A stretch of 64,000 bases of DNA from Vulcanimicrobiota bacterium (GTDB lineage: Bacteria > Vulcanimicrobiota > Vulcanimicrobiia > Vulcanimicrobiales > Vulcanimicrobiaceae): the NCBI GenBank assembly GCA_963812155.1, contig CAWETW010000005.1:21734-85733 (forward strand). Reading direction: 5' to 3'. Position numbers and translations under genes: made by a program. This document shows, piece by piece, positions 6,339-59,382 of this stretch (position 1 is its first letter; every line of letters begins with the position of its first letter). Under the pieces are notes generated by a model, which did no database searches, had not been told where the DNA came from, and saw only the letters and a list, made by a program, of their open reading frames with translations.

Positions 6339-7226
6339 GTGAGAGGCGCCCGCGCGGAACGCGACGTCGAGCGCGCGATTCGCCAGAGCGGTGCGATCGA
6401 GCGTGGCGAACGCCTCCTGATCGCGTGCAGCGGCGGCCCCGATTCGGTGGCCCTGGCGTGGGCGCTGAGCGAGCTCTCCGGTCCGATGCGCCTGCAGGCG
6501 CGCATGGCATACGTGAATCACGGCATCCGCGAGGCGGCGTGGCAGGACGAATGCGTCGCGGCATCCGTCGCTGCAGCCTGCGGCCTCGAACTCGAGGTGA
6601 TTCGTCCGGCACCCTCGGGTAACGACGAAGCATCGTTACGCGCGTTGCGTTACGAGTCGCTGCTCGAATGCGCGCGGCGCTGCGGCAGCACGGCCGTCGT
6701 GACGGCGCACCACGCGGAGGATCAAAGCGAAACGGTGTTGCTCGCGCTGTTTCGCGGGGCGGGTCGAGACGGTCTTGCCGGCATGCCGGTGCGGCGCCAG
6801 CTCGGCGACGGCATTGCGCTCGCGCGGCCGCTGCTGCGCGTCGAGGCCGGCGCACTGCGGCGCCTCTGTCACGCACGCGCGCTGCCGTATGCAGTCGATG
6901 CGACCAATGCGGACGCCGCGTTCCGCCGCAATGCGGTTCGCGGTGCCCTCGACGCGCTGCGCCCGCTCTTCCCAGGACTCGATGAAGCGGTCGCTCGGGC
7001 GGCGACGCTCGCCTCCGACGAGACGCAGTCGCCGCGGCGTGCCGAGCTTCGGCGGATCGTGCGCGCCTGCTTGGCGGAGCAAGAACAGCTGCGCGACATC
7101 GCCTTTGCCCACGTCGAAGCGGCCGTGCGTGCCCTCGAAAGCGGCCGCAGCGGAAGCTTTTGGATGAAACCCGGAGTTATTCTCGAGGTACGCCAAGGCG
7201 AAGTCTCGGGCATAACCCGGGAGTAG
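6339..7226 (+). CDS. tilS: tRNA(Ile)-lysidine synthetase (short form)
   Basis: SGGPDS PP-loop, TAHHAEDQSET, RPLL, RRNAVR; upstream of ftsH. Confidence 0.92.
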   Translation: MRGARAERDVERAIRQSGAIERGERLLIACSGGPDSVALAWALSELSGPMRLQARMAYVNHGIREAAWQDECVAASVAAACGLELEVIRPAPSGNDEASLRALRYESLLECARRCGSTAVVTAHHAEDQSETVLLALFRGAGRDGLAGMPVRRQLGDGIALARPLLRVEAGALRRLCHARALPYAVDATNADAAFRRNAVRGALDALRPLFPGLDEAVARAATLASDETQSPRRAELRRIVRACLAEQEQLRDIAFAHVEAAVRALESGRSGSFWMKPGVILEVRQGEVSGITRE

Positions 7227-7334
7227 AAAAGGGGCGCCTTCGGCGTCGAGCAACCAGCCCGTCCGCCGGGTGTGTTGAAAGGAAACGATGCCCGCGAAGG
7301 CCCAAGAGTCCCCCGTGTCCCCCGGAAAGGCGAC

Positions 7335-9250
<1,916 letters not shown>

Positions 9251-9254
<4 letters not shown>

Positions 9255-47944: not shown

Positions 47945-48069
47945 TGAACGGCAACATGATAAACGGCAATCGCCGGCGCTAATGGCCCCACATGCGATGA
48001 GGGGCCGTCAGTTGAGCGCGTAGTGGGGTGTCCCGTAGACGGGGCGACTGCCACCTGAAGTGAGGAGCA

Positions 48070-50780
48070 TTGGCTACGGGAAAAGTACGGATTTTCGAGC
48101 TCGCCAAAGAGGTCGGGCTATCGTCGAAGGAGTTGATCACGCTCTTCAACGAGCGCTTGGGCGGCATCTTCGAAGCGAAGAATCAACTCAGCGTCGTCCC
48201 GGATCAAATCGCCGATCTGGTCCGCAGCGTCTTGGTGAAATCCGGCGCGGCAGCCCGCGAAAGCCGCGCCGGCGCCGCGCCGTCGCAAAAGCCGCTCCGG
48301 CAAAAGCGCCCGTCCGAAAGGCTGCCGCCGGCGCGTCCGCCCGCGCCCGAGGCGCCGATTCCGCGCCTCCGTCCCGTCACCGGAACGCCTAGCCGTACGC
48401 CGCGCACAGGCTCCCGTCGCCGCCGTACCGCCGCCCGCCGCCGTCGCCGTCGCAGCCGCCGGCGCCGCTGCCCAGCAGGTTGCCGCCGCCGACGGTCGCG
48501 GCACCGCCCCGCCGCCCGGCTGCACAATCCGCGCCCGAGGCCGATCCCGCAGTTGCGTCCGGTTCCGTCCGGCCAATCCTCGATCGTACGGCGTGTAGCG
48601 CCCCCACCGACCACGAGCGCTTCCGCATCGCCCGGCCCCGCCGTGGGCATGCCGGGACGTCCCGGCGTGGCGCCGCGGCCGGGCCAGGCTCTCCCCGGAC
48701 AAATCGGCAAGGCGCCCGGTCAGCCGTGCGTCCCGGGCCACAAGCTCCCGTCGCGCCGCCGCGCCGGCACGCCGGCAACGGCCCGTTCCGTCCGCTCGGC
48801 CCTGCTCAGCGGCCGGAGGCGCGCCCGGGAGCAATGGTCGCGCCCGGCGACGGACCCGCACCTTCGGCGGGCGGCCGTCCCGGCGACCGCATTCGCTCGC
48901 ACGAAGACAAGGCCGCGGCCAAAAAAGATCGCGAGAAAGAACTGCTGCTCGAAAAAGAGCGGCAACGGAAGAAGAAAGGCGATCACGCCGCTCCCGTCGT
49001 GTCGCGCACCCTCGAGACGATCGAGATCCCCGATCTTCTCACGGTACAAGAACTCGCAACGTCGATGATCGTTCCGGTGAAAGACGTCATCACCGAACTG
49101 ATCAAGATGGGCACGATGGCGACGATCAACCAGAACATTCCGAGCGACGTCGCGATCTCGGCTGCGAAGAAGTTCGGCTTCAACGCGGTCGTCAAGGAAG
49201 CCGGCGAAGAAGTCACCGTCGAGCAAGAAGAAGACAAGCCCGAGATGATGACGCCGCGTCCGCCGGTCGTCACCGTTCTCGGTCACGTCGATCACGGCAA
49301 GACGTCGCTGCTCGACAAGATCCGCAAAGCGAACGTCGCGGCGGGCGAAGCCGGCGGCATCACGCAGAAGATCGGCGCGTACACCGTCGAGCAAAACGAT
49401 CGCAAGATCACGTTCATCGACACGCCCGGTCACGAAGCGTTCACCGCGATGCGCGCGCGCGGCGCAAAGGTCACCGACGTTGCGATCCTGGTCGTCGCGG
49501 CCGACGACGGCGTCATGCCGCAGACGCAGGAAGCGATCGCGCACGTCAAAGCCGCCGGCGTTCCGATCGTCGTCGCGATCAACAAGATGGATAAACCCGA
49601 CGCGCAGCCGGATCGCGTGAAGCAGCAGCTCACGGAACAAGGATTGCAGCCGGTCGACTGGGGCGGCAACATCGAAATGGTTCCGGTCTCCGCCAAGACC
49701 GGCGACGGCATCGACGCATCTGCTCGACACCGTGCTTGCTCGAAGCCGACATCCGCGATCTCAAGGCGAACAAGCACGCGCCGCGCGACCGGCGTCGTCA
49801 TCGAATCGGCGCTCGACCGCGGCCGCGGCGCCGTCGCAACCGTGCTCGTGCAGAACGGCACGCTGCGCGTCGGCGACATCGTCGTCGTCGGCGGAACGTT
49901 CGGCAAGGTGCGCGCGCTCATCGACGACAAGGGCAAACAAGTCAAGAAGGCCGGACCCTCGATTCCGGTCGAGATCATGGGCCTGTCCGACGTGCCCGTC
50001 CGCCGGCGACACGCTCGATGGTCGTCAGCGACGAGCGCGTCGCGCGCGAGGCCGCGGAAAAGCGCGCCACGCGGCGCCGCGACGTGCGCATTTCCGCGAC
50101 CGGTTCGCAGCGCGTTTCGCTCGAGACGTTCATGTCGATGCCGGCCGAAGGCAAGAAGACGCTCAACCTCATCCTCAAGGCCGACGGACAGGGTTCGCTC
50201 GAAGCGCTGCGCTCTCGCATGGAATCGCTCTCCGACGACAGACGTCGACATTCGCGTGATCCACGGCGGCGTCGGGGCGATCTCGCCGAACGACGTCAAC
50301 CTCGCGAGCGCCTCGAACGCCGTGCTCATCGGCTTCAACATCCGCCCGGACGAAACCGCGCAAGCGGCTGGCCGAGAACGAAGGCGTCGATCTGCGCTTC
50401 TACCAGGTCATCTACGAGATCGAAGAGGACCTCAAGAAGGCGATGCGCGGCATGCTCGCGCCGATCGTCCGCGAGGTCACGCTCGGACGCGCCGAAGTTC
50501 GCGAGGTCTTCAAGGTCTCGAAGGTCGGGACGATCGTCGGCTGCTACGTCACCAGCGGCAAGATCTCGCGCAACGCAAAGGCGCGCGTCCTCCGCGACTG
50601 CGGCGGTCGTCTTCGACGGCGAGATCGAGTCGCTGCGCCGCTTCAAGGACGACGTTCGCGAAGTCGCCGAAGACTTCGAGTGCGGCATCCAGGTCGCGAA
50701 GTTCCAAGACCTCAAGGAGGGTGACGTCATCGAAGCCTATGCGATCGAACACGTTGCCGCGGAACTGGTGCAGCGCATGA
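48070..50780 (+). CDS. infB: translation initiation factor IF-2 (multiple frameshifts)
   Basis: [56 protein letters not shown] start after GAGGAG. Confidence 0.97.
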
Positions 50781-51133
50781 AGGCTCAGCGCATGGCCAAA
50801 ATCGATCACGAGATCCAGCGCATCCTCGGAACGCTGATCACCCAGGAACTCCAGGACCCGCGCTTGGCGTTCGTGACGGTCACGCGCGCCGAAGTCAGCG
50901 ACGATTTGCGCCATTGTAAGGTGTACGTGTCGGTGATCGGCGACCGCCAAGCGGCGCGGCAGTCGCTCGACGCGCTGCGCCATGCGAGCGGCTTTCTGCG
51001 CGGCGAGCTCGGGCAGAAGATCGATCTTCGGCATACGCCCGAATTGATTTTCATCGAAGACCGCTCGACCGAGCGCGCCATCGCCCTGGCGAAGACGCTG
51101 CGCGATGCGCTCGCGCACGACGAGGCGTCGTGA
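50777..51133 (+). CDS. rbfA: ribosome-binding factor A
   Basis: DPRL.FVTVT..VS.DL, ASGFLR, LRHTPEL.F. Confidence 0.95.
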
Positions 51134-52112
51134 CGATCGAGAGCGCCTCGGCCATGGCCGGCACGGACGAAGTCGTTGCGGAACTGCGCGCGCGTTCCGC
51201 ATTCGTGATGGTGAGTCACGTAAAGCCCGACGGCGACACGCTGGGCGCGGGCCTCGCGCTCGGGCTCGCCCTCAAGAAGCTCGGAAAACGCGTCTTCTAT
51301 TTCAACCAAGATCCGGTGCCGCGCAACCTACGGTTTCTTCCGGACTCGGAGTTCGTTTCGCGCCAGCTGCCGGCCGATCTCCCGCCCGACACGCTCTTCG
51401 TTTTCTGCGACATGAGCGACCCGGCGCGCGCCGGCGAGTTTCTTCCGGCCGTCGATCGTGAGAACGTGCTCGACATCGACCATCACTTCGGCAACGCGCA
51501 TTTCGGCAAGCTCAACTACGTGATCGAAACGGAATGCTCGACCGGGACCGTCATCATGCAGTTGCTGCGCGACCTGGGCGTTCCCGTCGACGCCGATATT
51601 GCGACCTGCGTGCTCGCGACGATCATGACGGATACCGGCGGATTCATGCACTCGAACACGACGCCGGAAGTGCTCGACTTGGCTGCCGAGTTGATGCGGT
51701 TCGGCGCGAACAAAGAGCAAATCACCGAGGAAATCTTCCTGCGCAAACGCGTGGCGGCGACGAAGCTGCTCGGCGAGATCGTCGAACGCATGCGTTTCGA
51801 ACACGACAACCGCTATTGCTACTCGTACGTCGACGACGCGATGCTCGCGCGCACCGGCGCCGACGGCGAAGACACCGAAGACACCGTCAACGTCCTGCGG
51901 GGGCAGGAAGGCGTCGAAGTGTCGGCGCTGTTCAAAGCGATCGACGGTGAGATTCGCGTGAGCTTGCGCTCGAACGGGCGCGTCAACGTTCAGGCTGCGG
52001 CGAAGCGCCTCGGCGGCGGAGGCCATTTCCGCGCTGCGGGAATGACTTGCCATGGAACGCTCCAGGAGGCTTTGGCGCGGTCGACGCCGCGCTCGTCGCC
52101 GAAGGGTTGTAA
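51130..52112 (+). CDS. nrnA: DHH-family oligoribonuclease/pAp phosphatase (indel near 3' end)
   Basis: HVKPDGD, DIDHH, TDTGGF, VSLRS, GGGGH..AAG. Confidence 0.9.
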
Positions 52113-52116
52113 CGCC

Positions 52117-52365
52117 ATGACGGTGGCTGCGGGAATCGTGCTCGCCGTCTTCGGCAGCCTCGGATTTTGGTTTCTCGCGCGGCAGTTTCCGCAGGCCCGT
52201 TTGTTACGCACGAGTTACGCGCTGCTGGCCTTCGGCGGCGTGTCGTTCGTTGCGTGGGGTTTCTCGAAACTTTTGCCGCTCGGAATTGCGGCTGCGCTGC
52301 TCGTTGCGATCGGCGGCATCTTAGGGGTCGCCGGGGCGCTGCGCAAAGAACTGCGCTCGGCGTAA
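52117..52365 (+). CDS. small membrane protein (82 aa, ~3 TM)
   Basis: ATG 4 nt after the corrected nrnA stop; hydrophobic helices. Confidence 0.6.
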   Translation: MTVAAGIVLAVFGSLGFWFLARQFPQARLLRTSYALLAFGGVSFVAWGFSKLLPLGIAAALLVAIGGILGVAGALRKELRSA

Positions 52366-52381
52366 CGGTCTCGACCGCAAC

Positions 52382-53264
52382 GTGCTCGGTTTCGTCAACG
52401 TCTTCAAACCGGCGGGGCCGACGTCGGCGCACGTCGTGGCGAGGTTACGCCGCATCTACGGCGGGCGCGGGCGCGATCGCAAACCCGGTATCGGACACTT
52501 CGGAACGCTCGATCCGCAGGCCGCCGGCGTGCTGCCGGTGGCGGTAGGCCAAGCGACGCGTTTGATTCCGTTGCTCGACGATCAGCGCAAGGGCTACGCG
52601 TGCACGATCGTTTTCGGACGCTCCACCACGACGCAGGACGCGCTCGGCGAGACCGTCGAGGACGGTGCGGTGCCCGCGGATTGGGCGCGCCGGCTGCATG
52701 CGGCGATTCCCCGTTTCGTCGGCAAGATCGCCCAGGTGCCGCCGATGTTTTCGGCGCTCCACCATGAAGGGCGCCGGCTGTACGAACTCGCGCGCGAAGG
52801 AAAAACCGTCGAGCGCAAACCGCGCGATACGATCGTCTACTCGATCGCGCTGCTCGGCATCGAGTCGCCTGGAGTCGCGCGACTGCGTGTCTCCTGCGGC
52901 GCCGGAACCTACGTGCGCACGCTTGTGCCACGACATCGGTGCCGCCATGGGCGTGCCCGCGCACATGGGCGCGCTCGTGCGCGAGGCGTCGGGTCCATTC
53001 GTCCTCTACGAATCGCGCACGATCGAAGAGATCGCCGACGATCCCGAGGCAGCCTTGACGCCGCCCGAACGGGTGATTCCGTTTCCGACGATCGTGCTCG
53101 ACCTGCGTGACTCGGCGGATTTTCGGGCCGGCCGCGTGGTGCCGCTTCCGCAGGGCTCGGGCGCACGCCATCTCTTCGTGCGCGACGAGTCGCGCACGCT
53201 CGTGGGCGTCGGCGAAGCGCTCGGCGCGCTGCTGGCGCCGCGCAAGGTGCTGGTCGACGTATGA
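52382..53264 (+). CDS. truB: tRNA pseudouridine(55) synthase (frameshift near 52925)
   Basis: KP.G.TS, GH.GTLDP.A.GVL, TTTQD..G, Q.PPMFSA, GTYVR. Confidence 0.95.
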
Positions 53265-54181
53265 GCGCGCGCATCGTGCACGCGCTCGAGCGCGATTCGA
53301 AGCGTCCGCTCGCGCTGGCGATCGGATTCTTCGACGGGTTTCATCGCGGGCATCGCGCGATCGCGCGACAGACGCTGCGGATGCGCAGGCCGGGCTGGCG
53401 CTCGGGTGTGCTGACGTTCTCGAATCATCCGTCGGCATTTCTGCGCCCGGGCACGGAGCCGCCGTTGCTGTGCACGCCGGAAGAACGTGTGTCCGCGTTC
53501 GCCGGCGCCGGCTTCGAAGAGTGCCTGTTCATCAGGTTCGACGATCGCATCGCGACCCTGTCGCCACAGGAATTCCTCGAGGTGCTGGTCGACCGGCTCG
53601 GCGTTCGGGCCGTCGTCGTCGGTTCGAGCTTTCGCTTCGGCCATAAACGCGCCGGCGACGTCGCCTTCATGCGCGAGTATTTCGACCGGCGCGAGGTTGC
53701 GTTCGTTCCGCTGGAAAACGCGACCGACGGCGGCGAGCGCATCTCGAGCACGCGTATCCGCGAACTCGTCGCAGACGGCGAGGTCGCGGCGGCCGACCGC
53801 ATGATCGGCGGCAACGGCTACGAAATTCGCGGCGTCGTCGAACTCGGCGAAGGGCGCGGGCACGCGCTGGGATTTCCGACCGCCAACGTGCGCCCGCCGC
53901 GCAAACTCTTGCCGAAAGACGGCGTCTACGCAGCGATCGCGCGCTACGACGGACGCGACCATCCGGCGCTCGTGTCGATTGGAAGCAATCCGCAGTTCGG
54001 TGGAAAACAGCGTACCGTCGAGGCGTGGCTGCGCGATTTCCATCACACGATCTACGGCCGCGAACTCGCGCTGCGCGACCTGCGCTACGTGCGGGCGCAA
54101 ATGCTTTTCGAGGAGGTCGACGAACTCGTCGCGCAGATGCATCGCGATGTCGAAGCCGTCGCCTTTCCGAGTTATGGGTAG
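53261..54181 (+). CDS. ribF: bifunctional riboflavin kinase/FAD synthetase
   Basis: G.FDG.H.GH, FRFG, ISSTRIR, G..LGFPTAN, GVYA. Confidence 0.95.
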   Translation: MSARIVHALERDSKRPLALAIGFFDGFHRGHRAIARQTLRMRRPGWRSGVLTFSNHPSAFLRPGTEPPLLCTPEERVSAFAGAGFEECLFIRFDDRIATLSPQEFLEVLVDRLGVRAVVVGSSFRFGHKRAGDVAFMREYFDRREVAFVPLENATDGGERISSTRIRELVADGEVAAADRMIGGNGYEIRGVVELGEGRGHALGFPTANVRPPRKLLPKDGVYAAIARYDGRDHPALVSIGSNPQFGGKQRTVEAWLRDFHHTIYGRELALRDLRYVRAQMLFEEVDELVAQMHRDVEAVAFPSYG

Positions 54182-54759: not shown

Positions 54760-56632
54760 GTGAAGCGGTCGCTCAAGGGGTACCGTACTCTGTGCGCGGC
54801 GGCCGTGCTGTTTGCCGGGTGTGCGGGTGGCGGCGCCCAAAACTCGCTGGGTCTGCCCGCAGGGGCCGGCCTAAATCCAGGCGCCAACGTGATGGGGGCT
54901 GCTCCTAACGGCACGACGCTGTTTCGCGTGCGCGTGCCGTGGACGGCCGGAAATGGGGCCCCGGTTCCGGCGCGCGACGCCGCCGGGCGCTGGCGTGCCC
55001 ATGCCGATGGTCCCGGGAACGACGCCCACGCCTTTTGCGACCCCCACGCCGTTGAGCACCGGAGCACCCGCCGGCCCTTCCGCCCAGGTCCAGGCGATTA
55101 CGCTAAATCTCAGCGGCCCGACGCCGGCGACGGAAACGATCGGGTTGACCTCCGGATCGGCATCCTGCGTCAACGTCGCGGCGGGCGGCGCGGTCTGCCA
55201 AGCGTCGTTGCCGCTCGCGGCCGGCAACTATACGGCGGCCGTGTCCGAGGTGGGCGCCGCGATGCCGAACGGGATGCAAACGATCGCATTCGCGGTGACG
55301 TACGGCTCGGGCACCGTCGTAAATCTGACGCTTTCCGGCGTACCGCAGCAACTGGCCGTGCTTGCCGGATCGTCCATGAGTTACCTCAACGCGCAGGGCG
55401 GCGTCGATCTGTACGGTGCCGGAAAGCATCAACTCGTCGCGCAGCTCCTGGATGCCAACCAAAACATCATCGTTGGTGCCGCGTCACCGGTCGTCACCGT
55501 GGCGCAATCCGGCGGCGCGCTCGCGCTTTCGGTGGCACCGCCGGGTCCGAACCTTCCGAACGTCTTCACCGTTTCGCCGCCGGTTCCGTATGCCGGCGGC
55601 ACCGCGACGCTGCGCGTCATCGCCGCGTTTCCGGGAATGCTCTCGAATCCGTGCTTGCAAATCGGCGCGACCTGTTCGGGCAGCGTGGCCCTCGGCGTCA
55701 AGCAGTTGCTGGCGATTGCGAATGCGGGCACGAATGCGGTGGCATTATACGCCGGCGGCCAGAACGCGCCGGTCGCGACGATTCAAAACGGCGTGAGCAA
55801 TCCGCAGTCGCTGGTTTTCGACGGCGCCGGCGATTTGTTCGTTGCGAGCCAAACCGGCAGCGTTACCGCATACGCCGCGCCCTATAACGGATTGCCGGCG
55901 ACGATCGCCATGGGCGTCAATCATCCGCAAGCGCTCGCACTGGACGCGCGCGGCAATCTCTTCGTCGCCAACGGCAGCGCAAGCAACACCGTCACGGAAT
56001 ACTCGCCTCCCTACGGCGGCGGACCGGTGGCCACGATTTCGACCGGCATCGAAGATCCCGTCAGCCTCGGATTCGATGCCTCGAACGATCTGTTCGTCGC
56101 CAATCAGGCGTCGAACACCGTCACGGTTTACGCACCGCCGTACACCGGCACGCCGACGACGCTCTCGAACGGCCTGTACGGTCCGAACTCGTTAGCGCTC
56201 GACGGCCACGGAAATCTTTTCGTTTCGAACCTCAACAGCACGCCGGCATCGGTCGTCGAGTTTTCGCCGCCGTTCTCTGCTGCGAGCGCGCCTGCCGTCG
56301 CCATTACCAACGGCGTCAACGAACAAGGTGCGATCGCATTGGGTCCGTCGTCGAGCCTCTTCGTTCCCAATCAAGGCTCGAACACGGTGACGCAATATCT
56401 TCCGCCGTATGCCGCGGCGCCCGCAACGATTTCGGGCGGTCAGAATCAACCGGTCGCGCTCGCGATCGACGCTGCCGGCAATCTTTACGTCGCCAATTAC
56501 GGGAACAACACGGTGACGCAGTATCCGCCGCCGTACGCGGGCGCGTCGTGGATCACGATTTCCAACGGCGTGAGCAGTCCGCAGGCGCTCGCGCTTTCGC
56601 CGCCGACCTCGACGACCGCAATTTTCCCGTAG
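54760..56632 (+). CDS. lipoprotein with C-terminal NHL-repeat beta-propeller (frameshifted near 5' end)
   Basis: Lipobox FAGC; ~6 repeats of P..LA.D..GNLFVAN...NTVT.Y.PPY. Confidence 0.8.
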
Positions 56633-56637
56633 TGTTT

Positions 56638-58573
56638 TTACGCGGCGTCGACGACCAGGGCGCCGTCGTGGAGATCGACGCCGGCGGTGCTGCCCGCGTG
56701 TAATACGCCGCGCAATACGGCGGTGGAGATCGGCGTCGAGACGTGACGCGACACGGTGCGCTGCACGAAGCGCGCGCCCGAACCCGCCGCCATCGATTCC
56801 TCGGCGAGGAAGCGCCGGGCGTCGTCGGTGAGACGCAGCCGCACGTCGCGCGCGCCGAGCCGTGCCGCCAGCGCGTCGACGTGGATCGCGACGATGGCTT
56901 CGATTTGGGGTAGCCCCAGCGGTTCGAACGCGACGATCTCGTCGATGCGGTTGACGAGTTCGGGACGTAGCGCGAACGCCATTTCATCGTCTTCGAGATT
57001 GGTCGTGAGGACGATCAGCGCGTGGCGGAAATCGATCGTGCGTCCCTTCGCGTCGGTGACGCGACCGTCGTCGAGAATTTGCAGCAGCAGCGCGGCGACG
57101 TCGGGGTGCGCTTTTTCGAGTTCGTCGAAGAGCACGACGCAGTAGGGCCGGCGCCGCACCGGTTCGGTCAGCTGCCCCGGTTCGTCGTGGCCGGCGTATC
57201 CCGGCGGCGCGCCGAGCAAACGCGACACCGAGTGCTGCTCGGTGAATTCGGAGAGATCGATGCGTACGAGCGCGGATTCGCTGCCGAACAGGGCTTCGGC
57301 GAGCGCCTTCGCCAGTTCGGTTTTACCGACGCCGCTCGGGCCGCGGAAGAGAAAACTGCCGAGCGGTTTGCGCGGATCGTGCAATCCGGCGCGCGCGCGC
57401 CGGATTGCGTCGGAGACCGATGCGATCGCTCGCGACTGGCCGATGACGCGACGCGCGAGGACGTTCTCGAGATCGAGCAAGCGATTGGCTTGCGATTCGC
57501 TCAACGATGCTTGCGGAATTCCGGTCCAGCGCGTCACGACTGCCGCAACGTTCTCGCGCGTCACCACGGGACGATCGACGGTGCCTTTGTTCTGCAGCAC
57601 GACCGATGCGGCCGCTTCATCCATGAGATCGATCGCCTTGTCGGGCAAGAACCGGTCGGCGATGTAGCGCGCCGACAGTGCGGCGGCGGCTTCGATCGCG
57701 TCGTCGCCGATCGTCACGCGATGGTGCGAGGCGTATCCTTCACGCAGTCCGCGCAGAATTGCGACCGTCTGCTCGATGCTCGGCTCGTCGACCATGACCG
57801 GCTGAAACCGGCGTTCGAGCGCTGCATCGGACTCGACGTACTTTCGATATTCGTCGAACGTCGTCGCACCGATGCACTGCAGTTCGCCGCGCGCCAACTC
57901 CGGCTTGATCATCGAACTGAGGTCGAGCGCGCCTTCGGCAGCGCCCGCGCCGACGAGCGTGTGCAGTTCGTCGATGAACAGAATGACGTCGCGCGCACTG
58001 CGCTTGACTTCGTCGAGAATGCGTTTGACGCGGCCCTCGAATTCGCCGCGATACTTCGTTCCGGCGACGAGCGGACCGAGCGAAAGCGCGAGCACGCGCT
58101 TTCCGCGCAGCGACGCCGGCACCGTTGCCCTCGACGATCTTCAGCGCCAGCCCTTCGACGATCGCGGTCTTTCCGACGCCCGGCTCGCCGACGAGCACGG
58201 GATTGTTCTTGCTGCGGCGCGCGAGAATCGAAACGACGCGTTCGATTTCGTCGTCGCGTCCGATGACGGGATCGAGTTTGCCGTTGCGCGCCAGATCGGT
58301 CAGGTCGCGCGAAAAACTTCCCAGCGTCGGCGTGCCGCGGAAACGGCGCGTCAGTTCGTCGAGCGGCGATCCGCCGCGCTCGCGTTCCTCGCCTCCGAGC
58401 CGCTCGCTGAGCAGGATGCCTCCGGCGATGATGCCCGCCGCAGCCAGAGCCGCGCCGAGAAACGGCAGCGCGCCCGTGACCGTCCGTCGCTGGGCGCAGG
58501 CGGTGCACAGGCGCCGGCGGCCGTCGAAGACGGGTGCCGGGAGGGCGCCGCAGTTTTCACAGGTCGAAGTCAT
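56638..58573 (-). CDS. atypical Clp/Hsp100 AAA+ ATPase (Zn finger + hydrophobic helix, two NBDs; frameshift near 58125)
   Basis: [56 protein letters not shown]. Confidence 0.9.
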
Positions 58574-58606
58574 CGCTCTGCTCTACCGGTGGGCGCCCGC
58601 GAGGTT

Positions 58607-59305
58607 TCAGGGCTGCGCCAGGAACGTCGCGCTCAAGGTCACCGTAACGCTGACGTTCGACTGATCGAACCGCGTCGGCGCGTTGGCCGCCATGCGCATC
58701 ATCGGCTGGGGTTCGACTCCGCCGCCGCCAAGGTCGACGCTCTTCAGGGAAACGACGTGCAAGTGCGCCGCTGCGGCCAGCGTCTCGGCGTTCGCGCGAG
58801 CGTCGGCAACGGCTTTGCCGGTCGCCTGCGTGCGCGCCACGCTCGGGTCGGCGAGTCCGAACGAAACGTCGTTGATCGACGTGGCGCCGGAACCGCTGCA
58901 CGCGTCGGCGACGCGGCCGGCGTTGCCAATGTCGCGCACTTTGACGGCAAACGTGCGCGACACGGTGTAACCGTAACGCTCTCCATCGGGACTCGGCGCC
59001 ACGATGTGCGGTTTGGGATTGTAACTCATGTTGTACGACACGAGTGAGACGTCGCTGCGCGCGACGCCGGTTTTCACGACCGCCGCGACGATGCGCTCGT
59101 AGACGGCGTTGTTCTTCCCGACCGCATCCCCGGCGGCCGGTGCGTTGGTTTCGACCGCGGCGACGACGTTTGCGACGTCGGGTTGCATCGTCACCGAACC
59201 CGTGCCCGAAACGCGGATCTCGGTGGTCCCGGGAGGCGTGTCGGCGCTTGCGGGAGCCGACGCAACCGCGAGCGCTCCAAGCAGGCAGAGGAGAAGACGC
59301 TTCAT
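58607..59305 (-). CDS. SIMPL (DUF541/BP26/YggE) exported protein
   Basis: Signal peptide, I.VSG.G.V..PD, GAT.I..V.F, A...AV.DAR..AE.LA. Confidence 0.88.
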
Positions 59306-59382
59306 ACCCACGTAACGTCGACGCCGGGGCGGCGGTGCCCTTGGTCGAATCTTTCACCGATAGAAAAGGAGGCGCTGGCCGC

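Follow-up and report, generated by a model that had tools for sequence, protein, structure and literature searches.

A gene at 56638..58573 on the minus strand of the DNA analysed here (64,000 nucleotides of Vulcanimicrobiota bacterium assembly GCA_963812155.1, contig CAWETW010000005.1, positions 21,734 to 85,733 of the forward strand; hereafter the window) raises the question of what work an Hsp100/Clp ATPase could do without a ClpP-docking loop or a middle domain (M-domain), and with a zinc finger and a hydrophobic helix at its N terminus. To our knowledge, every characterised bacterial Hsp100 either hands substrates to ClpP by way of an IGF loop or is kept under control by an M-domain, and the pulling of proteins from membranes has, as far as we know, so far been assigned to FtsH and Msp1-type enzymes. 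Our analysis suggests, tentatively, that the gene encodes a lineage-specific third Hsp100 of Vulcanimicrobiia, a stand-alone unfoldase at the cytoplasmic face of the inner membrane that works without ClpP, DnaK or an adaptor.

A class I Hsp100 without M-domain or ClpP-docking loop

The gene and its two nucleotide-binding domains (NBD1 and NBD2) are laid out as follows.

56638..58573, minus strand: third Hsp100/Clp ATPase gene, about 644 aa in intact orthologues
57621..58330, minus strand: NBD1, with Walker A at 58189-58166, KYRG at 58056-58045, Walker B at 57981-57961 and the Arg finger at 57822-57805
57544..57621, minus strand: NBD1-NBD2 linker of 36 residues, at the M-domain site of ClpB/C/E/K
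56641..57544, minus strand: NBD2, with Walker A at 57342-57319, GYAG at 57201-57190 and Walker B at 57132-57106
Further sites of NBD2, minus strand: truncated ClpP-docking loop at 57006-56941 and sensor-2 at 56856-56848

In this assembly the gene (58573 to 56638) falls into two frame pieces owing to one surplus base at 58127, the indel that the first-pass annotation had placed near 58125. The base is missing from the contigs of all four soil-metagenome runs in which the locus was compared (three studies; one run may be the source sample), and two genomes of the same genus, G001 and G007, have an uninterrupted 644-aa frame (99% and 93% identity over the first 149 residues). The break is hence an assembly error, and a pseudogene is ruled out by the same evidence; the G001 orthologue (L002) was used as a stand-in for full-length work. 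Frameshifts are also found in infB and truB (window 48000-53300), clpC (G000:C1:641551-644048) and clpB (G000:C3:268497-271365), and broken genes of this indel-rich assembly should therefore be taken as sequencing errors until shown otherwise.

Both AAA+ modules are intact. Walker A and B of each module, the KYRG and GYAG pore loops, both Arg fingers and the sensor-2 GAR are present in the window gene, where the Walker motifs, pore loops and NBD1 Arg finger lie as first described, and each catalytic motif matches in 94–103 of 103 homologues. With two AAA+ modules, aromatic pore loops, Arg fingers and a D2 small domain, the protein is a class I Hsp100/Clp. In one alignment, its middle region measures 36 residues, against 35 in ClpA, 83 in ClpE, 92 in ClpK, 94 in native ClpC and 151–155 in ClpB. 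The D2 loop region has 23 residues against 41–56 in all ten reference Clps, which argues that the ClpP-docking segment was excised and not merely mutated. The earlier description had DEAAAS running straight into VTRENVA and TTNL into RPELVNRID; these junctions are not direct (13 and 10 residues lie between), but the absence of an M-domain (36 residues vs 35 in Escherichia coli ClpA) and of an IGF/LGF loop stands. Missing both, the protein should be independent of ClpP and of DnaK or adaptor control via the M-domain.

A profile of the first 90 residues has matches in 124 of 201 genomes, with one strong match in each: the window genome, 111 of 113 genomes in family f1, three of three in f2 and nine of 15 in f3, a count that includes one unpublished genome (G036), on which alone no claim rests and which is left out of the linkage count below. 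The gene is a single-copy, near-core gene of Vulcanimicrobiia, found in 123 of 131 class genomes besides the window genome and in none of the 69 genomes of the phylum outside the class. Carriers are named Candidatus (Ca.) Eremiobacteraeota or Vulcanimicrobiota, including Ca. Tumulicola, Cybelea, Tyrphobacter and Baltobacteraceae; a few under other names (Babeliales, Acidoferrum, Binatia; 57–80% identity) are probably mislabelled bins. A search of 1.84 billion representatives gave 38 matches and, among the 18 inspected, 17 were family-like or fragments and one was McsA-like. In three f3-type sequences (L030, P0039, P0040), Asp replaces the NBD2 Walker B Glu (LFDDVD) and NBD2 may therefore hydrolyse poorly; f2 members have His at sensor 1. 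Paralogues collected from ten relatives comprise 11 ClpC with an IGF loop and nine ClpB, and clpP-clpX is also present in the window genome, hence general disaggregation and proteolysis are already covered by canonical enzymes.

In two trees the family forms one side of a branch with 99–100% support, apart from ClpB, ClpC, ClpE, ClpK, ClpA and ClpV; both are quick trees with Shimodaira–Hasegawa-like approximate likelihood ratio (SH-aLRT) support and long-branch warnings, the sister group is unplaced, and no sequence named ClpI was included. Clustering with ClpE or ClpC, which the first-pass annotation had named as evidence against a separate architecture, was not found; the family is a clade of its own in both trees. 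It also scores under every NCBIfam Clp cut-off, including those of the models for ClpA (TIGR02639, 678 vs 993), ClpB (TIGR03346, 826 vs 1232) and ClpG/ClpK (NF033606/7, 636 vs 1900).

Databases annotate the family as plain ClpC, a label that is wrong by every defining feature tested. Unlike ClpC, it has no UVR-type M-domain (36 vs 94 residues) and a short D2 loop (23 vs 56), native ClpC having IGF; unlike ClpB, it has neither a long M-domain (36 vs 151–155) nor helical Clp-N repeats. ClpA of E. coli shares the absence of an M-domain, but has helical N repeats and an IGL loop for ClpP. The stand-alone disaggregases ClpG and ClpK (PMC10641755) share an N-terminal zinc finger of the same type, two AAA+ modules and the lack of an IGF loop. 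They differ in having a helical N2 domain, an M-domain (92-residue region), about 950 aa, no hydrophobic helix (best KD19, the Kyte–Doolittle hydropathy over 19 residues, 0.85) and an aggregate-binding V17/L21 hairpin that is shortened or changed in the family, and they form a separate clade. ClpE (PMC13125188) likewise has a zinc finger followed by a short linker and NBD1, is adaptor-independent and has its own stress promoter, but carries an M-domain (83), a VGF loop, a ClpP partnership and a disordered linker with a short Phe motif (KD19 0.35), and lies on a separate branch. ClpIb of Actinomycetota (PMC10149685) is an extra double-ring Clp beside ClpB/ClpC, with a short loop, no LGF and a presumed role as an independent unfoldase; ClpI, however, has a ClpC-length M-domain and belongs to another phylum, and "transmembrane" occurs 0 times in the main text of that article. 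The family is set apart from ClpI by description, and the supplementary sequence sets of PMC10149685, outside this comparison, could hold comparable outliers.

A Lactococcus plasmid Clp (L256, NZ_CP053674.2) has no M-domain (31 residues) and no IGF motif, a precedent for the double loss, but it lacks an N-domain, keeps a long D2 loop (51) and is distant in the tree. This stripped 594-aa protein (L256:738-2522) is encoded near a TrbC/VirB2 gene and is perhaps linked to conjugation. Each loss thus has a precedent: the M-domain in ClpA, the loop motif in ClpIb (PMC10149685) and both in the Lactococcus protein. ClpV/TssH also has no IGF motif, but differs in its N repeats, its long middle region (167 residues) and its distant place in the tree. 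Msp1/ATAD1 and FtsH, membrane-anchored AAA+ rings that extract membrane proteins, are comparable in working only; they are single rings of the classic AAA clade and not Hsp100s, FtsH has its own protease, and their anchors are strongly hydrophobic transmembrane helices. The family is a class I Hsp100, but by the features that define ClpA, B, C, E, G/K, I and V it belongs to none of these types, and the architecture first described is real, conserved and, by alignment, trees and motif counts, distinct from ClpA/B/C/E/G/K/V. Our literature search, which most subscription papers lay outside, turned up no article on the family or on any bacterial Hsp100 anchored in the membrane, and none, supplements likewise outside, in which the two losses occur together with a finger and a hydrophobic helix.

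The zinc finger and the hydrophobic helix

Three elements precede the motor.

58496..58561, minus strand: predicted four-Cys zinc finger (C5, C8, C23, C26), a shortened relative of the ClpG/ClpK N1, ClpE and McsA finger
58406..58474, minus strand: uncharged Gly/Ala-rich hydrophobic helix, residues 34-56, candidate membrane anchor
58337..58366, minus strand: short amphipathic helix, residues 70-79, before NBD1 (from its hydrophobic moment; a helix in both models)

The N-terminal part, a finger and helix of about 98 aa, has no Clp_N match in the Clp protein. The window gene has the finger pattern CENC-x14-CTAC followed by the hydrophobic segment (58474-58406) in place of Clp-N repeats, as the first-pass annotation had proposed. 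All 79 of the 79 sequences aligned keep the four Cys. When 19 long-finger members are combined into a profile, it scores 18.7 bits with ClpK N1, 18.9 with an unnamed ClpG-like protein and 11.2 with ClpE, scores that were equalled by 0, 0 and 1 of 100 Cys-preserving decoys respectively (maxima 8.2 and 10.6 for the first two); a weak McsA match was also found (8wtb, E = 0.05). Scores above Cys-preserving decoys argue for a finger of the ClpG N1/ClpE/McsA type, fingers whose kinship is described in PMC10641755 together with the aggregate-binding residues V17 and L21. In the family the hairpin is shortened (spacer of 14 in 64 of 79 members; 21 in ClpK) and the V17 position is not kept, with Asp in 26, Tyr in 16 and Phe in eight of 66 scored members. 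No Pfam family matches the N-terminal part, and neither Foldseek (N-terminal model, no match at E <= 0.001) nor the ESM Atlas (no usable match) returned a relative, blanks that are no proof of novelty. The best VIA match to the N-terminal model reached Z 5.0, and the matches are common zinc-finger-plus-helix shapes.

The hydrophobic segment of the window gene has a KD19 of 2.10. Its loss in homologues would have spoken against the architecture; instead it is kept in 111 of 111 scored homologues (KD19 at least 1.77; uncharged run of 22–27 aa; one of the set of 112 has no score for the segment) and at 30 of 30 loci, against a best N-terminal window of −0.6 to 1.46 in the ten reference Clps. Its borders are conserved (R30 in 73 of 79, E/D57 in 78 of 79, then K/R58), as are single letters within it (n = 79; P37 in 77, G40 in 78, A42 in 78, G47 in 70, G51 in 77), including a G47xxxG51 motif. 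Its mean hydrophobic moment is 0.34, against 1.64 for helix 70-79, which suggests hydrophobicity on all sides and not the single packing face of a helix that lies against a soluble domain. The AlphaFold2 model of the N-terminal part has a finger, a kink near P37 and a continuous helix (36-59) but no compact fold (predicted template modelling score, pTM, 0.37); the helix is predicted to be free of globular packing, and no packing partner is predicted for it. In the full-length model, its predicted local distance difference test score (pLDDT) is below 50.

On a Hessa-type scale the mean insertion energy is marginal, at +0.46 kcal/mol (30 loci; range −0.85 to +3.23), where an S41 anchor scores −2.4 and FtsH transmembrane helix 2 (TM2) −2.2; small residues make up 56% of the helix. 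Lys plus Arg over 25 residues averages 4.1 before the helix and 4.5 after it, with no positive-inside bias, as expected if both sides are cytoplasmic. ATP-driven rings with intact motifs are cytoplasmic, and a helix that crossed the membrane once would leave the finger on one side and the ATPase on the other, a topological problem that the first-pass annotation had missed. As the helix is marginally hydrophobic and flanked by basic residues at both ends, an anchor that is re-entrant or bundled appears likelier than a plain single pass. Tethering of the Clp to the membrane by this conserved helix is plausible, and a soluble, substrate-binding helix is possible instead.

In the latter case, the protein would be a soluble stand-alone disaggregase, its helix a substrate-capture or oligomerisation element that replaces the ClpG N1, ClpE or ClpL patch and gains avidity from six copies. 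The finger, homologous to ClpG/ClpK N1 and ClpE by the scores above, fits this, as does the hydrophobic motif just after the finger of ClpE (PMC13125188); furthermore, insertion of the helix is energetically marginal, its sequence is conserved at single positions, the topological problem vanishes, and the promoter described below is common with that of cytoplasmic HslUV. Set against this are a 22–27-residue, uncharged, non-amphipathic helix with charged borders that is unmatched in ten reference Clps (best KD19 1.46), the lack of a predicted packing partner and the presence of ClpB, and we consider a soluble enzyme unlikely, though the most serious of the alternatives. Export by the twin-arginine translocation (Tat) pathway was also considered; a TatFind-like rule (RR plus hydrophobic residues) is matched in 1 of 103 homologues only, though RR follows the finger in 73 of 103, and Tat export was rejected.

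Promoter-like element, neighbouring genes and C terminus

The flanks and the end of the gene carry four further features.

58582..58608, minus strand: promoter-like element of extracytoplasmic function (ECF) type, GAAAC-N16-GGTAG, 8 nt before the Clp ATG
58607..59305, minus strand: SIMPL (PF04402) gene with a Sec-type signal peptide, a conserved neighbour and not an obligate partner
59313..59340, minus strand: a different promoter-like element, GGGCAC-N17-CGTTA, 7 nt before the SIMPL ATG; strict pattern at 16 of 80 loci
56641..56655, minus strand: C-terminal Ala-Ala, candidate ssrA-like ClpXP degron, in 99 of 103 homologues

The Clp gene's own ECF-type promoter-like element, with its candidate regulon, and the conserved Ala-Ala end are new here. 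The strict GAAAC-N16-GGTAG pattern precedes 53 of 80 GTDB Clp starts; with A/G allowed at the first −10 position, a relaxation introduced after misses were seen, it precedes 78 of 80, whereas none of the 4860 other windows at these loci contains it. The element persists at Clp loci without SIMPL and resembles Bacillus ECF promoters (SigW, TGAAAC ... CGTA; PMC5758882), and the Clp transcript is probably leaderless, judging from the spacing. Around f3 loci, the motif matches fall within the coding sequence of Lon-N or in other places, none of them at the Clp start, and were treated as chance.

A scan of ten genomes for the pattern plus ATG gave 59 matches against 22 for a reversed control (56 of the 59 were examined). 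Recurring targets were the Clp gene (10 of 10, seven of them in the motif training set), hslV (6 of 10), an S41 protease (2–3), a 108-aa protein (2) and a 62–70-aa hydrophobic protein (2); TPM, Bax1-I/YccA, M48, DUF1232 and a DPP-IV-like peptidase occurred once each, and many other matches precede no real gene. The Clp gene, hslVU, the S41 protease and the small membrane proteins thereby become a candidate ECF stress regulon. In the window genome, outside the window itself, individual GAAAC-N16-18-GGTA elements lie at hslV (G000:C3:989774), the S41 protease (C2:400016), a TPM-domain gene (C3:220261), the gene of the 62-aa hydrophobic protein (G000:C4:98905) and that of the 108-aa protein, which has no Pfam match (C4:91591); the 62-aa and 108-aa genes recur with the motif in relatives. 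A GAAAC...GGTA element is also present at 7166-7190, before ftsH (window 7272-9251, plus strand), and 98 nt upstream of a gene for a 190-aa Cys/His-rich protein (G000:C3:1208711, minus strand), which has an ECF sigma gene (C3:1204040) at a distance of some 4 kb. A role for the Clp as partner of an orphan HslV was ruled out, hslU following hslV in 5 of 5 loci. No GGTA-type match was found in 20 upstream regions of clpB/clpC (one has a CGTA-like match at −150), no strict CIRCE element in the window genome and no autoregulated sigma factor among 17 sigma loci.

The same motif at an S41 protease would suit an N-in/C-out signal anchor that makes the double ring periplasmic, in the company of SIMPL and this protease; tail-specific S41 proteases also read non-polar C-termini. 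The charge of the nearest 12 residues agrees with that orientation, being more net-positive on the N side in 108 of 111 homologues. The periplasm has no ATP supply, however, and all catalytic motifs are kept; the TatFind-like motif (1 of 103) gives no support either, and a periplasmic ring is very improbable.

The first-pass annotation had placed the Clp gene 33 nt downstream of an exported SIMPL gene, probably in one operon. The gap is correct; a common operon is not borne out, as the gap holds a promoter-like element of the Clp's own, SIMPL has a different motif, and seven f1 genomes carry the Clp but show no match to SIMPL. Linkage itself is widespread: among the SIMPL matches listed (30 weaker ones lie outside), and for 123 of the 124 Clp matches, SIMPL is directly upstream in 95 of 112 f1, three of three f2 and none of eight f3 genomes (98 of 123), with SIMPL unlinked in all eight f3 genomes. 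An obligate partnership is not supported, in view of the Clp genomes without a SIMPL match and the unlinked f3 genomes, and SIMPL is a long-kept but dispensable neighbour. Our literature search on SIMPL found nothing that ties it to Clp.

Adjacency to an exported protein in 98 of 123 genomes bears on a single-pass, N-out/C-in anchor as in Msp1, in which a periplasmic Cys finger (perhaps a disulfide sensor or SIMPL contact) would be joined to a cytoplasmic ATPase working as an extractase. The length and borders of the helix suit one pass, and G47xxxG51 is a packing motif. The N-tail, however, is basic right up to the helix (a mean of 3 K/R vs 0.2 D/E in 12 residues), and positive charge on the N side argues against N-out; the finger belongs to a type that is cytoplasmic and binds zinc (PMC10641755), and SIMPL is missing in seven Clp genomes and unlinked in 8 of 8 f3. 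Such an anchor is improbable.

Other neighbours vary or flank the locus. In f3, a stand-alone Lon N-domain gene (about 222 aa, PF02190) lies just upstream of the Clp in five of seven loci (for example L038:8201-8866, also L037, L039, L041 and L042), after sod and fabI; a protein with this N-terminal substrate-binding domain of Lon could possibly act as an adaptor. A 559-aa Pro/Ala-rich NHL-repeat gene (54953-56632, plus strand) is convergent with the Clp gene, ends 5 nt from its stop, and is kept in some relatives and missing in others. A gene for a GlsB/YeaQ/YmgE-type transglycosylase-associated membrane protein (PF04226; 59377-59640, plus strand) is divergent from SIMPL across a gap of about 70 nt.

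A further reading is a dedicated remodeller of one complex or regulator, comparable to ClpV and the type VI secretion system (T6SS) sheath, whose finger and helix would recognise a specific membrane partner such as one of the small co-regulated membrane proteins or an anti-sigma factor. That the helix is conserved at the level of sequence suggests such a partner, the co-regulated 62–70-aa and 108-aa proteins are conserved, and the Lactococcus plasmid Clp beside TrbC/VirB2, also without M-domain and IGF, indicates that stripped rings can be specialists. No partner gene is class-wide, though (SIMPL in f1/f2, the stand-alone Lon N-domain in f3), and the promoter is common with general proteases; a dedicated role is also improbable, if anything a little more so than the single-pass anchor.

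At the C terminus, 99 of 103 full-length homologues end in Ala-Ala, against 22 of 1134 coding-like frames of the window genome and none of 20 ClpB/ClpC paralogues; f2 and f3 members lack this end. The tail is likely a ClpXP degron, judged by its resemblance to ssrA-type ends. ARAGORN detected no transfer-messenger RNA (tmRNA) in the window genome, hence there is no native ssrA tag for comparison.

A proposed membrane-tethered unfoldase

In the reading we prefer, an unfoldase at the cytoplasmic membrane face, an ECF sigma factor responding to envelope or proteotoxic stress would switch on the Clp together with hslVU, the S41 protease and the small membrane proteins. The Gly/Ala-rich helix would dip into the membrane or pack with its five neighbours, so that finger and ATPase both stay cytoplasmic, and the amphipathic helix 70-79 may rest on the membrane surface. 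Membrane and pre-secretory proteins that are damaged, stalled or mislocalised would be threaded through the pore of the hexamer and released unfolded, and these clients could refold or pass to HslUV, FtsH or Lon, acting separately. With no M-domain brake, the restraint on activity would come from the location of the enzyme and from its degradation by ClpXP via the Ala-Ala tail.

Several observations weigh against this reading. The energy scale is crude, with FtsH TM1 scoring +0.22 owing to an edge charge, and the charge asymmetry in 108 of 111 homologues fits N-in/C-out, with the ATPase outside. In ClpE, which is soluble, a hydrophobic Phe motif in the same place after the finger serves to bind aggregates (PMC13125188). 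The promoter and the Ala-Ala tail are confined to family f1, being absent from f2 and f3, and all three f3 members checked have Asp for the NBD2 Walker B Glu. The candidate regulon mixes cytoplasmic (HslUV) and envelope genes, and many of the scan matches are chance; ftsH was rejected as a member, the motif occurring at 3 of 21 orthologues, those of the window genome and its two closest relatives only. Finally, Ala-Ala ends mark ClpXP degrons yet are insufficient alone (PMC10862746).

Taken further, the family could be a self-anchored membrane Hsp100, an Msp1-like extractase built independently from a ClpB/ClpC double ring, in which confinement and a ClpXP degron replace M-domain repression and which would serve across the whole class, one of abundant soil bacteria, as the motor of an unrecognised ECF-sigma envelope-proteostasis regulon (HslUV, S41 protease, small membrane proteins); we put this forward with still more reserve than the membrane-face unfoldase itself. 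The family bears on whether an Hsp100 can extract membrane proteins. As a near-core gene of the class that lacks both loop and M-domain, it offers a naturally minimal double ring in which the control of threading could be studied, and it is small enough for expression in E. coli. The common promoter would give initial access to a stress regulon of a phylum that is largely uncultured.

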